In this document: in pieces, positions 3,610 through 55,760 of the stretch
Numbering within the stretch: position 1 is the first letter of the stretch
Layout: each line of letters opens with the position of its first letter
Source: Nanobdellota archaeon
GTDB lineage: Archaea > Nanobdellota > Nanobdellia > Woesearchaeales > SKGA01
Assembly (NCBI GenBank): GCA_051819805.1
Contig: JBNJHD010000004.1
Span: forward strand, 1 to 55,760
Direction: 5' to 3'
DNA: 55,760 nucleotides
Program-made: the position numbers and the translations under genes
Notes under the pieces: model-generated
Told to the model about the DNA's origin: nothing
Database searches by the model: none
The model's input: only the letters and a program-made list of their open reading frames with translations

Positions 3610-6237
3610 CTAATTCTCTTCTTTCAATTTCGCATGAGCAGCTGCAAGACGCGCAATAGGCACACGATAAGGAGAACAACTGACGTAATTCAATCCAGTC
3701 CTATGGCAAAATTCCACGCTTGATGGTTCGCCGCCATGCTCGCCACAGATGCCTACTTTGAGATTCTTATTGACACTACGACCTTTCTTCACACCCATCT
3801 CAACGAGCTGTCCGACACCAGTCTGATCGAGCACCTGGAACGGATCGTACTCGAGTAAGCCTTTATCGATGTATTGCGGCACGAACGTGCCGACATCATC
3901 GCGTGAGAAGCCGAGTGTCATCTGCGTGAGATCGTTCGTTCCGAAGCTGAAAAACTCCGCTGATTCAGCGACCTTATCTGCAGTGAGCGCTGCACGAGGC
4001 ACTTCGATCATCGTTCCGATCTTATAGCTCACAACATCACTTGAAGAGATAGTCTCCTCAGCGATCGTTTTCACGATATCTTTCTGGTTGTCGAATTCTT
4101 TGACATTCCCTATGAGAGGAATCATTACTTCCACTTCAATCGTGTTGCCATCAGCTGCTACTTCCTGTGCTGCTTCAAAGATAGCAACGGACTGCATCTC
4201 GGTGATTTCCGGATAGGTGATACCGAGCCGGCAGCCACGATGTCCGAGCATAGGGTTGACTTCCTCAAGTTTTTCGATGAGTTCATGGATCTTTTTCTCG
4301 CTCACTCCCTGCTCGTGTGCCATCTGCTTGATATCCTCTTTCTCTTTTGGCATGAACTCGTGAAGCGGTGGATCGAGCAGTCGTATCGTGATCGGCTTTC
4401 CCTTCATGATCTCGAAGAGTTGCTTGAAGTCATCTTTCTGGAATGGCTTGATCTTGTCAAGAGCAGCTTTCCGTTTCTCCTTAGTATCTGACAGGATCAT
4501 CTCACGAACCGCTTTGATGCGTTCTCCTTCAAAGAACATGTGTTCAGTCCGGCACAATCCGATACCTTCCGCTCCGAACTCGAGCGCTTTCTTCGCGTCC
4601 CGTGGCGTTTCTGCGTTGGTTCTCACCTTCATGGTCCTGTGCTTGTCAGCCCACTCCATGATCTTCGCGAATGAACCTGAGAGGTCAGGATCGACTGTCG
4701 GCACTTGTCCTTCATAGACTGTTCCTTCAGTTCCATCAAGACTCAAGTAGTCTCCTTCGTTGAATGTCTTTCCATCGAAGGTCACTGTCTTAGCAGACTC
4801 ATCGACTTGCGCGTCACCGCATCCTGAGATGCAGCATTTTCCCATACCTCGAGCGACGACTGCCGCGTGGCTTGTCATGCCGCCTTTCGCTGTAAGTATT
4901 CCTTTTGCAGCATCCATTCCGATGAGGTCTTCAGGGCTCGTATCGTTTCTGACGAGAATGACATTCTCCCCTGCTTCTTTCATCTTCACAGCCGCATCGT
5001 TTGAGAACGCTATCTTTCCCACTGCGGCTCCAGGGCTTGCCGGCAAGCCTTTACCGAGTGTCTTATGCTTGTCTTTAGCCACCTTGTCGAGTTGTTGGTG
5101 AAGGAGCTGATCGAGTGCTTTCGGATCGATGCGCAGCACTGCAGTCTTTTCATCGATAAGTCCTTCATCGACCATGTCTGCTGCAATCTTGACAGCCGCG
5201 TGCGCTGTCCGTTTCCCATTTCTGGTCTGGAGCATGTAAAGCGTTCCTTCTTGGATGGTGAACTCCATGTCCTGCATGTCCTTGTAGTGGCTCTCGAGAT
5301 TCTTGTAGATAGTAACCAATTGGTCATAGACTTCAGGCATCAGATCCTTGAGTGTGGATATCGGTTTTGGTGTACGTATTCCTGCAACGACATCCTCTCC
5401 TTGTGCGTCCATGAGGTATTCGCCGTAAAAGACGTTCTCCCCGGTTGATGGATCGCGTGTGAATGCCACTCCTGTCCCGCTTGTCTTGCCCATGTTTCCG
5501 AAGACCATCGCCTGCACGTTGACCGCTGTTCCTTTGAGTCCTGTGATGTTGTTGAGTCGTCGGTATGCGATCGCACGATCATTATTCCACGAGCCAAAGA
5601 CCGCATCGATCGCTTTGAAGAGTTGCTCGCGCGCATCTTGCGGGAATGGTTCTCCAGCATTCTCTTCGATGATCGTCTTGAATTGCTTGACTGCGTTTTT
5701 CAGATCATCGACATCAAGATCCTTATCGAACTGCACTCCTTTTGTCTCTTTGATCTGTTCAAGGACGTGTTCGAACTTGCTTGCCTTGACTTCGAGAACG
5801 ACATCTCCGAACATCTGCAGTAGTCGTCTGTATGAGTCCCATGCGAATCGTTCATTGCCTGACTTTTCTGCCAGTCCTTTGACGACCTCATCGTTGAGCC
5901 CGAGGTTGAGGATCGTATCCATCATCCCCGGCATCGATTGTGCAGCTCCGCTTCGCACAGAGAGAAGTAGCGGTTCGCTCCTGCTACCGAGACTTGCTTT
6001 CATCTCCCCCTCGAGTGTCTTGAGATGATCGAGAATCTCGCTTCTGGTTTCTTCAGGTAGCGTGTTGTTGTTATTGTTGTATTCTTCACAGGTTTCCGTG
6101 GTGATCGTGAATCCAGACGGTACTGGAACGCCGATGTTTGCCATCTCTGCTAAGTTTGCGCCTTTGCCGCCAAGAAGACTTTTCAATTCCCGTCTTCCTT
6201 CTGTCTTATTGTTGCCGAAAAAATAGACGTGTTTCAT
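3610..6237 (-). CDS. ppdK: Pyruvate, phosphate dikinase
   Basis: LLGGKGANLAEM, SVRSGA, GGMTSHAAVVAR (phospho-His), FSFGTNDLTQ, GICGEHGG. Confidence 0.97.
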   Translation of the reverse strand: MKHVYFFGNNKTEGRRELKSLLGGKGANLAEMANIGVPVPSGFTITTETCEEYNNNNNTLPEETRSEILDHLKTLEGEMKASLGSRSEPLLLSVRSGAAQSMPGMMDTILNLGLNDEVVKGLAEKSGNERFAWDSYRRLLQMFGDVVLEVKASKFEHVLEQIKETKGVQFDKDLDVDDLKNAVKQFKTIIEENAGEPFPQDAREQLFKAIDAVFGSWNNDRAIAYRRLNNITGLKGTAVNVQAMVFGNMGKTSGTGVAFTRDPSTGENVFYGEYLMDAQGEDVVAGIRTPKPISTLKDLMPEVYDQLVTIYKNLESHYKDMQDMEFTIQEGTLYMLQTRNGKRTAHAAVKIAADMVDEGLIDEKTAVLRIDPKALDQLLHQQLDKVAKDKHKTLGKGLPASPGAAVGKIAFSNDAAVKMKEAGENVILVRNDTSPEDLIGMDAAKGILTAKGGMTSHAAVVARGMGKCCISGCGDAQVDESAKTVTFDGKTFNEGDYLSLDGTEGTVYEGQVPTVDPDLSGSFAKIMEWADKHRTMKVRTNAETPRDAKKALEFGAEGIGLCRTEHMFFEGERIKAVREMILSDTKEKRKAALDKIKPFQKDDFKQLFEIMKGKPITIRLLDPPLHEFMPKEKEDIKQMAHEQGVSEKKIHELIEKLEEVNPMLGHRGCRLGITYPEITEMQSVAIFEAAQEVAADGNTIEVEVMIPLIGNVKEFDNQKDIVKTIAEETISSSDVVSYKIGTMIEVPRAALTADKVAESAEFFSFGTNDLTQMTLGFSRDDVGTFVPQYIDKGLLEYDPFQVLDQTGVGQLVEMGVKKGRSVNKNLKVGICGEHGGEPSSVEFCHRTGLNYVSCSPYRVPIARLAAAHAKLKEEN

Positions 6238-54630: not shown

Positions 54631-55038
54631 ATGCAACGCTCATTCGAGATATCAACTGACACTCGCGAGAAGCTTTATGATGTGACTGATCATGTCAAGC
54701 GTATCTTGAACGAAAGCAGTGTCAAGGAAGGCAGTGTTCACGTGTACGTGAGAGGTGCTACTGCTGCTATCATGATCCAGGAGAATTGGGATGAGAGCGT
54801 GCAGACCGATGTTATCAACGTTCTGCAGAAAATCGCTCCTCGCGACGTGTGGCTTCATGATCGTCAGGACGGCAACGGTGATTCCCACTTGAAAGCAGGA
54901 CTTATCGGTCCCAGCGAGACGATTCCCATCATCGACAGCGATCTCGGCCTCTCCACATGGCAGAACATTTTCTTGTGCGAATTCGACGGCCCGAGGGAGA
55001 GTAGAGAAATCGTTGTCACGATAACGAATTCTAAATGA
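54631..55038 (+). CDS. yjbQ: YjbQ/UPF0047 family protein
   Basis: TAAI.IQEN, H...DGN.DSHLK, L.LSTWQ.I..CEFDGPR. Confidence 0.9.
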   Translation: MQRSFEISTDTREKLYDVTDHVKRILNESSVKEGSVHVYVRGATAAIMIQENWDESVQTDVINVLQKIAPRDVWLHDRQDGNGDSHLKAGLIGPSETIPIIDSDLGLSTWQNIFLCEFDGPRESREIVVTITNSK

Positions 55039-55111
55039 AGAAAAGCAAAAGCGTAGCTTTTAAAAATAGTCTTGTTCTCCCTGGTGAAGATTCGCAAGAA
55101 TCATTTTTTAG

Positions 55112-55259
55112 TGCCACGGTCGCATACTCGAAAACATTTGTTTTCGGTCGCGCACGTGTATTCATTACAATCATGCCACGGTCGCATACACGACGAAAAA
55201 ATTACGTCTGGTAGGCGACCGGGAACAAAAAGCACACTTTTTAGTGCCACGGTCGCATA
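55112..55259 (+). repeat. Three direct copies of TGCCACGGTCGCATA; the third is the 5' end of tRNA-Ser
   Basis: Exact 15-mers at 55112, 55174 and 55245; spacers of 47 and 56 nt. Confidence 0.9.
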
Positions 55260-55381
55260 ATCCGGTATTGCGCCGGCCTTGAGCGACGGATGAACAATCT
55301 TTGATTGTTATCGAGGTTTGACCTCACGTCCAAAACAGCCGGTTCCTCCGGGAATTCCCGGTTCAAATCCGGGCCGTGGCG
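55246..55381 (+). tRNA. tRNA-Ser(TGA) with 53-nt intron at position 37/38 (55284-55336)
   Basis: Acceptor GCCACGG/CCGTGGC plus G73; anticodon stem CCGGC/GCCGG with CT-TGA-G; long variable arm; T arm CCCGG-TTCAAAT-CCGGG; relaxed BHB; CCA not encoded. Confidence 0.9.
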
Positions 55382-55433
55382 CTTTATCTTATTCTTACGA
55401 GATTGAGGACTTTCTTCGAGTTGGATTTGAACC

Positions 55434-55555
55434 TCCAGTTCATGTTCGGCACTGAAGTGCCGACAGCCTTCGTATGACTCAGGCAATCCGGGCCGCATTA
55501 AGCTTGCCTTAATGCCCAGCATGATTTTGTCTCAAAATTATGTGCGGTGGCGCTT
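55434..55555 (+). repeat. Interrupted copy of the tRNA-Ser 3' end
   Basis: TCCAGTTCA [42 nt] AATCCGGGCC [52 nt] GTGGCGCTT versus tRNA CCCGGTTCAAATCCGGGCCGTGGCGCTT. Confidence 0.75.
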
Positions 55556-55661
55556 CATTTTTCTATGAAGCGGCATTCAGTGAATCTCCGATTCGAACGT
55601 GGTGGCGGCCTTCAAGAAGGAAAGCAATACACTTTGTTTGGAGAAAAAACATCACAATGAC

Positions 55662-55760
55662 TCACAACAGCACGTTCCAGATTATCACTCCGATCGCTAT
55701 GAACAGCCCCAGTATCATCATGATGTCAGCTGCCGTGAGCGCGTAGAACATCAGCACCTG
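55662..55760 (-). CDS. C-terminus of a membrane protein (partial at window edge)
   Basis: QVLMFYALTAADIMMILGLFIAIGVIIWNVLL*; hydrophobic. Confidence 0.5.
   Translation of the reverse strand, partial: QVLMFYALTAADIMMILGLFIAIGVIIWNVLL

Follow-up and report, generated by a model that had tools for sequence, protein, structure and literature searches.

Copies of a tRNA-Ser 5' end upstream of the tRNA gene in a Nanobdellota genome belong to a conserved, structured module

Why would an archaeal genome carry the 5' end of one tRNA gene three times in a row? The question arises on contig JBNJHD010000004.1 of the Nanobdellota assembly GCA_051819805.1, whose positions 1 to 55,760 (forward strand) we call the window. 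This is a metagenome-assembled genome (MAG) of 1.03 Mb in 45 contigs, with 42% G+C and 97% completeness. We label it G000; other G-numbers and the L-numbers denote compared genomes and loci, C-numbers denote contigs, and the window is contig C4. The 15-mer TGCCACGGTCGCATA starts at 55112, 55174 and 55245, and these copies form one repeat family with spacings of 62 and 71 nt, which leaves just 47 and 56 nt between copies, without an open reading frame (ORF). The entire assembly contains only four copies on both strands, three in this array and one on C18, so the array is far from chance. The C18 copy is upstream of the paralogous tRNA-Ser(GGA), a gene that has two similar units of its own upstream. 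In the array, copies 1 and 3 share 93% identity across 28 nt, including TTTTTAG upstream. A preliminary description of this DNA, made from its letters alone, had reported the three copies, the shared TTTTTAG and an intact tRNA at the third copy, and the repeat search, the whole-assembly count and the tRNA models confirm all three. We find that the two upstream copies open units (units 1 and 2) that are members of one conserved module, T1, and that T1 is a conserved structured module of many families in one archaeal order.

The third copy is the start of a complete gene. With introns allowed, ARAGORN reads tRNA-Ser(UGA) with a long variable arm at 55246..55382 on the plus strand and a 53-nt intron after position 37 (55284-55336, plus strand; ARAGORN -i reports Ser(tga) i(39,53)). 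RF00005, the tRNA model of Rfam, matches 55246-55381 with E = 1.4e-7 and 42.7 bits, above its gathering score of 29. The match has a long insert within its anticodon loop, and of the three copies only this one is recognized as a tRNA. The gene was missed by ARAGORN with default settings and by a gathering-threshold run of Rfam over the whole window. Units 1 and 2 (55113-55244) are without anticodon, variable and T arms, and they gave no RF00005 match at E up to 10 when 54900-55760 was searched. Orthologous tRNA-Ser(UGA) genes with identical intron placement are present in four relatives (G008, G009, G012 and G015). ARAGORN -i finds 30 tRNAs in G000, 21 of which bear introns. We also note that some relatives have an additional intron in the D-arm of tRNA-Ser. 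It lies between GGUA and UUGCG in contig C45 of G054 (locus L012, 1019-1150), and similar cases occur at loci of G105, G095, G104, G111 and G059, besides upstream T1 units.

Is the array real? Other scaffolds of this MAG do carry false duplications: the N gaps on C2, C11, C13 and C25 are bordered by identical 99-nt overlaps, which for example produce a second 72-nt copy upstream of the C11 tRNA. However, the window has no N, and a 266-nt contig from an independent public assembly (X1) covers 55113-55378, which includes both units and the tRNA, with 3 letters changed and 2 indels. The contig speaks against an artefact of assembly, with the reservation that X1 could be the source sample itself. 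The same layout is also found in dozens of other genomes. As for a CRISPR-like array, what repeats here is 15 nt of a tRNA end, the supposed "spacers" are hairpins that are conserved, and Cas1 was not found in this 97%-complete genome. The earlier remark that the window has no cas or integrase gene agrees with this (integrase matches are only on C35 and C9). We see next to no chance that the array is an artefact or is CRISPR-like. In a DNA sequencing run (X3), one joint skips 55068-55246, so a relative without units is possible; this is too weak to use, as one side has 22 nt and relatives are 90-95% identical.

A T1 module opens with a copy of tRNA nucleotides 1-14 and continues with AC-N, a helix that varies, the sequence GGUC, and a strand that is complementary to tRNA positions ~3-11. 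The core GCAUAC...GGUCGC is invariant, and the copied 5' end is held in a hairpin of ~16-20 bp. To describe the module we use A1, an alignment of 13 units with a hand-drawn structure, and R1, a covariance model built from A1. Unit 1 (55113..55159, plus strand) is canonical: it has the copy of tRNA nt 1-14 (55113-55126), ACU, the helix CGAAAAC/GUUUUCG, GUC, and the antisense strand GCGCACGUG, which pairs with positions 3-6 and 9-11. In the predicted fold, CACG..CGC of the copied 5' end pairs with GCG..CGUG past the apical helix (minimum free energy [MFE] of -17.9 kcal/mol, z = -3.70). Its R1 score of 67.4 bits (E = 3.4e-17) is high by construction because it is a seed member. Unit 2 (55175..55224, plus strand) is a divergent variant ("T2") that is absent from the seed and scores 24.4 bits (E = 2.8e-4). 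It has the copy of tRNA nt 1-14 (55175-55188), the helix GACG/CGUC, GGUAG, and the antisense strand GCGACCGG, which pairs with positions 2-11; CC.CGGUCGC pairs with GCGACCG.GG (MFE of -24.8 kcal/mol, z = -6.17). A near homologue of unit 2 lies upstream of tRNA-Ser(GGA) on contig C16 of G008. As the definition of T1 demands, another copy of the tRNA 5' end follows each unit, at +15 nt after unit 1 and at +21 nt after unit 2.

Much of this anatomy was already in the preliminary description: the tRNA-Ser nt 1-14, a helix at the D-loop site, GGU, and a D-stem-like GCG. The two hairpins that it named are present and fold as it stated. It also called the hairpins unrelated, which must be given up, as both units score on one covariance model, with compensatory changes in many families. 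And where it saw a loose match to the tRNA after the second hairpin, we think that the stretch behind the hairpin is better read as antisense to tRNA positions 3-11, not as decayed homology alone. The T1 units have no match in Rfam. Readings of the units as C/D-box, H/ACA or K-turn RNAs were considered and rejected, since no box motifs were seen by eye on either strand and an H/ACA pocket would need a larger internal loop.

The alignment supports the structure. In A1, 91.4% of the cells are paired, versus 25-45% if the partners are slid by 1-3 columns. Changes on both sides are seen in 9 of the 16 pairs, and the covariation score was reached by none of 500 shuffles. RNAalifold independently finds the pair at acceptor position 7, which is A-U in 6 sequences, G-C in 5 and G.A in 2. 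The sequence of the apical helix is free to vary, and its pairing is kept.

The antisense strand was analysed on a larger set. A search with R1 gave 63 elements from 55 sources, 60 of them distinct; L121 departed from the anchoring pattern and was dropped, which leaves 59 for analysis. We aligned the 3' strand after GGUC, without gaps, to the copied 5' end, and counted Watson-Crick and G-U combinations as paired. Positions 11, 10 and 9 are paired in ~97% of the elements; moving towards the 5' end, the proportions are 61% for position 8, 93% for 7, 90% for 6, 63% for 5, 68% for 4, 54% for 3 and 31% for 2. Over positions 9-3, the paired fraction is 0.752, as compared to 0.579 ± 0.016 (maximum 0.64) in 2000 swaps of 3' strands between elements. 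Antisense arms match lineage-specific acceptors, as with GCAGTGGC/GCCACTGC in G113 and GAGATCGC/GCGATCTC in G021. So, the antisense strand tracks the acceptor sequence of each lineage. Because positions 8 and 9 are included, decay of a copy of the tRNA's own partner strands is not enough to account for it. The copied 5' end itself stays close to the next copy: the numbers of mismatches at positions 1 to 14 are 2, 3, 2, 5, 1, 0, 2, 0, 0, 0, 1, 0, 7 and 9. Among the pairs of the model there are 30 G-U and 16 A-C combinations (along with 768 Watson-Crick and 71 others), and this excess of G-U favours an RNA on the tRNA strand.

How widespread is T1? R1 matches 26 of 151 genomes drawn evenly from the order, or 25 of 150 without the unpublished G148, whose match is weak and partial. 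All 5 genomes with R1 matches in a class-wide sample of 151 belong to the order, and none of 132 genomes from other orders of the class had a match. The architecture is kept in at least 25 families, and a DNA search of relatives with the locus turned up units arranged alike ahead of tRNA-Ser genes from other genera and families. T1 modules also precede tRNA-Thr genes (G156 and G037), and one array (G054) has 4 units. In 56 of the 59 elements, a further copy of the element's own first 14 nt lies 4-92 nt downstream on the same strand; two of the others are at contig ends and the third is a partial match. We inspected 24 contexts, and 22 have a copy of the unit's 5' end within 4-65 nt, with the other two at contig ends. 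We also note L111 (G106, contig C32, 1550-1800), where three or more tandem units of ~110 nt come after a T1 unit. Each opens with a tRNA-like 5' end and continues differently (GCCGTCGTCGCATAATCAATGGC...), so these look like another family of units.

If the units are RNA, what transcript are they part of? In 38 of 50 arrays, the first unit is preceded at a distance of 25-75 nt, mostly 31-37 nt, by an A/T-only, TATA-like 8-mer, and such an 8-mer is present within the array, 25-75 nt before the tRNA, in just 5 of 47. Given a box before the first unit and rarely inside the array, we infer that the units are transcribed as pre-tRNA 5' leader, and this is most likely where they lie. In the window, the TATA-like box TTTTAAAAATA (55058..55068, plus strand) is 45-55 nt 5' of unit 1 and is the only such box before the tRNA: in the scan, A/T-only 8-mers start 53-55 nt upstream of 55113 and none start within the array. 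At their orthologous loci, G008 and G009 have the GCGTAGCTTTTAAAAAT box ahead of the first unit as well. The leader would include two linkers, both on the plus strand. Between the units is a tail, AUUCAUUACAAUCA (55160..55173), which is unpaired in the fold; related tails (CATTCATTACATTCA and the like) precede the next copy in G014, G013, G016, G054, G080, G149 and L036. Between unit 2 and the tRNA (55225..55244) is a small predicted hairpin, AAAAAG-CACA-CUUUUU, with a T5 run immediately 5' of the tRNA, and the ACAAAAAGCACACTTTTCAG of this linker likewise precedes tRNA-Ser(CGA) on contig C9 of G008.

G000 has a gene for the splicing endonuclease and a candidate for the RNase P RNA (70.4 bits, E = 6.8e-20), which scores under the family cut-off of 84. 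The RNase P candidate (G000:C2:123612-124057) is 446 nt long, compared to 288 positions in the model, which suggests insertions or an unusual form.

We propose that the array is one transcription unit for tRNA-Ser(UGA) whose 5' leader would hold two T1 modules. Transcription would start from the TATA box upstream of unit 1 and continue through the units into the tRNA, and RNase P would cut at the last copy and so free the leader. Within a module, the variable helix would be placed in the variable part of the D-loop, followed by GGUC and then by the strand that locks the copied 5' end. That T1 is a conserved structured part of the pre-tRNA leader is a claim that we would make with about even confidence. 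The module may have originated by partial duplication at the tRNA's 5' terminus, with the copy number then altered by unequal crossing-over between the repeats.

The antisense strand can pair equally well with the upstream copy or with the 5' strand of the real tRNA. The leader might thus be laid out as a three-strand switch (1:2 versus 2:3 pairing) that gates or proof-reads the folding and 5' processing of the pre-tRNA. Such a switch is the guess that we favour to explain the lasting identity between the 5' copy and the tRNA, and we hold it tentatively, as something that is unlikely but worth stating. In a more concrete form, which seems to us just as doubtful, the decoy 5' copy would normally hold the antisense strand. 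Once released, that strand would capture the real 5' strand and would block folding and RNase P processing, and the hairpins with 3'-end copies that we describe below, downstream of tRNAs, would be the counterpart for 3' processing.

Several observations weigh against these proposals. No R1 match was found in 125 of the 151 genomes sampled from the order. The orthologous tRNA-Ser(UGA) loci have 0 units (G001 and G012), 1 unit (G008 and G009) or 2 units (G000), so the module is dispensable over short times. Unit 1 is directly preceded by a T6 run (55105-55110) and the tRNA by a T5 run (55238-55242), each of which continues into AG. T runs can terminate archaeal RNA polymerase, and partial termination within the leader is possible. 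The excess of G-U over A-C is modest. Also, 48 of 60 elements have a more stable fold on the minus strand, and the MFE structures have 37 G-U pairs on the plus strand and 73 on the minus strand. About 60 of the 73 are at one position, and the minus strand is more stable mainly because the conserved A12.C mismatch turns into G.U there. These data leave room for a role at the DNA level or on the minus strand. When we asked whether the antisense strand matches the tRNA or its own copy, there were just 6 informative cases: 2 matched the tRNA only, 0 their own copy only, 1 both and 3 neither. The identity of the 5' copy to the tRNA could be maintained by gene conversion instead of selection, and the function as a switch is something that we purely infer.

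From two metatranscriptome libraries, no contig falls on the units of this strain, and the one trace is a 33-nt piece from the array of a relative. Their contigs have no strand information and DNA may be carried over, so we give them no weight either way on whether the units are transcribed. Run X2 gave two 151-nt contigs that match 55395-55543 and 55558-55708 at 100% identity, a downstream stretch that reaches into the end of a convergent ORF, and nothing on the units, the tRNA or the upstream genes. The matched stretch (55395-55708) could be a stable non-coding RNA or the 3' untranslated region of the convergent gene, which ends at 55662. Run X4 gave a 139-nt piece on 55424-55562 and the 33-nt piece, which lies on 55160-55192 and whose loose ends show a relative's tandem units.

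That tandem array in an X4 contig would be expected if the units were released as independent small hairpin RNAs. With their tRNA-like 5' ends, they would act in trans, for example as mimics of the acceptor and D-arm that titrate a tRNA-binding enzyme. Units do start exactly at the equivalent of tRNA +1; U8, A14 and G18G19-like residues are kept much where a tRNA has them; and pairing is often lacking at position 8 (61% paired). However, positions 1-2 drift and stay unpaired, nothing points to a protein partner, and the RNA libraries may contain DNA. We consider this idea very unlikely.

Are the units instead a by-product of events at the DNA level? Partial copies of tRNA genes are not confined to this locus. 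We scanned for exact copies of at least 11 nt of each tRNA's own termini within 600 nt (excluding an adjacent pair of similar tRNAs on C44). Self-copies flank 13 of the 30 tRNAs of G000, with 5' ends upstream of 5 and T-loop-to-3'-end segments downstream of 11. The copies are limited to terminal segments of the tRNAs. Comparable fragments thus exist at other tRNAs, and at orthologous loci of relatives as well, as the preliminary description would have it.

It could be that these are tandem duplications of tRNA termini, without a function as RNA, that are homogenised by slippage, unequal crossing-over and gene conversion. The antisense arm would be kept complementary by quasi-palindrome template switching, and the hairpin would be tolerated, or would be selected only because an unpaired copy of the tRNA strand would disturb folding. 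This would account for the variation from 0 to 4 units among close relatives, for adjacent units that are often near-identical (units 2 and 3 of G054; L036), and for the varied terminal self-copies at 13 of the 30 tRNAs. The repeat and its conserved tail provide 25-30 nt of homology, several antisense arms are perfect complements (8/8 in G113 and 8/8 in G021), and the minus strand folds at least as well as the plus strand. But the architecture, with its invariant core, is kept in at least 25 families whose genomes are ~1 Mb, and useless DNA is usually lost from genomes of about this size. Such long conservation fits this account less well than the changes in copy number do. The apical helix varies in sequence while its pairing persists, and the ratio of G-U to A-C (30 to 16) points to the tRNA strand. 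We judge it unlikely that the units are a DNA-level by-product of this kind, with no function as RNA.

Partial copies beside tRNA genes are normally taken as footprints of integrating viruses or plasmids. The preliminary description had raised repeated insertion or an array of decoy att sites, and the 15-mers could be att identity blocks, with the inserts as remnants of elements or as miniature non-autonomous elements. The 15-nt direct repeats of the tRNA 5' terminus are what att duplication would leave, the flanking copies in G000 are only of termini and are on the expected sides, and the genome has 2 genes of the integrase family. One study gives tRNA 5' or 3' termini as the typical att sites of archaea and credits a 5' fragment of tRNA-Thr, 1.8 kb upstream of its tRNA, to an integrated element (PMC3293823). 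At our locus, the copies are spaced by 62 and 71 nt without an ORF, and the PF00589 matches are only on other contigs, C35 and C9. None of the 24 T1 contexts that we inspected has kilobases of insert or element genes between the unit and the tRNA. A covarying helix and an antisense arm that tracks its host are not expected of decaying remnants. The same description had suggested a search of viruses for the array's segments; we scanned viral contigs (IMG/VR) with a loose T1 pattern, which matches at least 120 stretches. Among the 80 loci listed there is one R1 match, which is inside a coding ORF with no tRNA copy after it and is a chance match. No integrase, mobile-element gene or Cas1 is associated with the array. 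Repeated insertion or a decoy-att array may still lie at its origin; as an explanation of the units, we find scars or decoys of integration quite unlikely.

We also looked for a more distant fragment of this kind. The sole candidate in G000 is on C20, where a 15-nt exact copy of a tRNA 3' end lies ~4 kb downstream of the tRNA (1910-1924 and 5902-6025) on a contig of 37% G+C. It may mark a small integrated element; C20 has no match to a tyrosine integrase.

Could the units be pieces of split or multi-exon tRNAs? They might be alternative 5' exons that are spliced to the downstream body or trans-spliced to distant pieces, and trans-acting fragments were among the earlier suggestions, made with a reminder that split tRNAs exist in Nanoarchaeum. 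The lineage is rich in introns (21 of 30 predicted tRNAs), the tRNA-Ser genes of relatives have D-arm introns, the splicing endonuclease is present, and only 30 tRNAs were detected. Nevertheless, an intact tRNA follows every array, so splicing between the repeats would yield an identical product. Furthermore, the sequence after each 5' copy pairs with that copy itself, and a BLAST search of the leader against the genome finds only itself and the C18 paralogue, with no complementary partner. The 89 loose candidates of a crude scan for bulge-helix-bulge motifs include no convincing one, and since the known intron was missed as well, the scan carries no weight. We regard split or multi-exon tRNAs as highly improbable here. 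Overall, att scars, split tRNAs, CRISPR and assembly error are all poorly supported.

We return to the window for the sequences downstream of the tRNA, which also contain copies of it (all on the plus strand). GGATTTGAACC (55423..55433) is the reverse complement of the T-loop segment GGTTCAAATCC of the tRNA and opens a structured element, which is ~90% conserved downstream of tRNA-Ser(CGA) on contig C9 of G008. AATCCGGGCCG (55485..55495) is a direct copy of the 3' part of the T-loop and T-stem (100% over 11 nt), and GCGGTGGCGCTTCATTTT (55544..55561) is a near copy of the 3' acceptor strand and trailer (83% identical to 55373-55390). Analogous 3'-end copies that are followed by T runs are found in G001, G009, G012 and L033. 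We considered a tRNA on the minus strand at 55400-55560 and rejected it: there is no cloverleaf by hand and no match in Rfam, and GGATTTGAACC is part of a recurring downstream element.

Downstream units are often mirror images of the upstream ones, with an antisense segment, a helix and then the 3'-end copy. Among the 10 downstream units that we folded, the 3'-end copy is mostly paired in 5 (C3, C10, C25, C26 and C33) and is not in the others (C4, C11, C13, C15 and C16); C2 was omitted as it holds N. Many tRNAs of G000 are at contig ends (C5, C10, C16, C24, C26 and C31). The last 99 nt of the window (55662-55760) are the reverse complement of the end of C26 (12855-12953), so C4 and C26 join there, and the contig breaks ~280 nt past the repeat-rich trailer of the tRNA.

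Other upstream units in G000 are of a different kind. At G000:C11:9480-9570 and G000:C15:20790-20860 (minus strand), units copy nt 1-18 or 1-19 of two tRNAs that we read as Thr-GGU and Val-GAC (ARAGORN labels them Ser), and they share the hairpin motif GCUGAUUUCGUYCAGCYGUCCCGA. We looked for this motif (GCTGATTTCGTYCAGCYGTCCCGA) as well and set it aside: it is present in 4 of 401 genomes of the order, all from the genus of G000, so this is a young family and is uninformative about T1.

What would it mean if T1 is part of the leader? The copy of the tRNA 5' end is here a part of a structured module that is kept with compensatory changes across many families of an uncultured archaeal order and is re-tuned to each tRNA. 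If it acts as RNA, then it is an undescribed element of tRNA biogenesis, and the switch, if true, would amount to a gate or quality check that is built into the maturation of the tRNA. Should it have no role as RNA, it clearly exemplifies how short DNA repeats and palindromes maintain themselves at tRNA genes. There are also two practical consequences. T1-type repeats coincide with the ends of MAG contigs and with false duplications. And because default finders miss intron-rich tRNAs, there is an effect on how many tRNAs are counted in this phylum and on any claim that some of them are missing or split. A preprint on Nanobdellota discusses tRNA counts and possible split tRNAs, and its passages on these topics do not mention flanking copies (10.64898/2026.05.13.725050); tRNA gene fragments are the topic of another paper (PMC9897764). 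Our literature searches found no description of such leader hairpins.

How does T1 compare to systems that are already known? The closest in appearance are the repeats of archaeal integrative elements of the SSV1 or pNOB8 type, and a tRNA-Thr fragment (tRNA-Thr-F) in Caldiarchaeum subterraneum (PMC3293823): in both cases a copy of a terminus lies beside an intact tRNA, on the side that is expected from integration, and multi-copy arrays occur. Unlike those repeats, the copies here (62 and 71 nt apart) have no element between them, and T1 copies carry a conserved, covarying hairpin with an antisense arm that is matched to the tRNA. They are also shared across families and are not specific to a strain.

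Split and tri-split tRNA genes are known from Nanoarchaeum equitans and Caldivirga maquilingensis. These resemble T1 in having a free-standing 5' piece that is followed by structured, complementary sequence, and in coming from a related archaeal phylum. However, the complementary strand of T1 pairs with its own 5' end and not with a partner transcript, and the T1 piece ends at position 14, with a complete gene for the same tRNA directly 3' of it.

Bacterial leader attenuators and T-box leaders use alternative 1:2 or 2:3 pairings. In such leaders, as in T1, three segments follow one another ahead of the regulated RNA, and the central segment has a choice of two partners, the one before it or the one after it. 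T1 is archaeal, and in the proposed switch the regulated product would be the tRNA itself. Finally, tRNA-like mimics serve as signals for processing or binding in the thrS operator, mascRNA and the tRNA-miRNA units of herpesviruses, and there too a part of a tRNA is imitated in another transcript. In contrast, T1 imitates just the 5' strand of the acceptor and the D-arm, it is fully paired to a complement, and it is presumably in the same transcript as the tRNA that it imitates.

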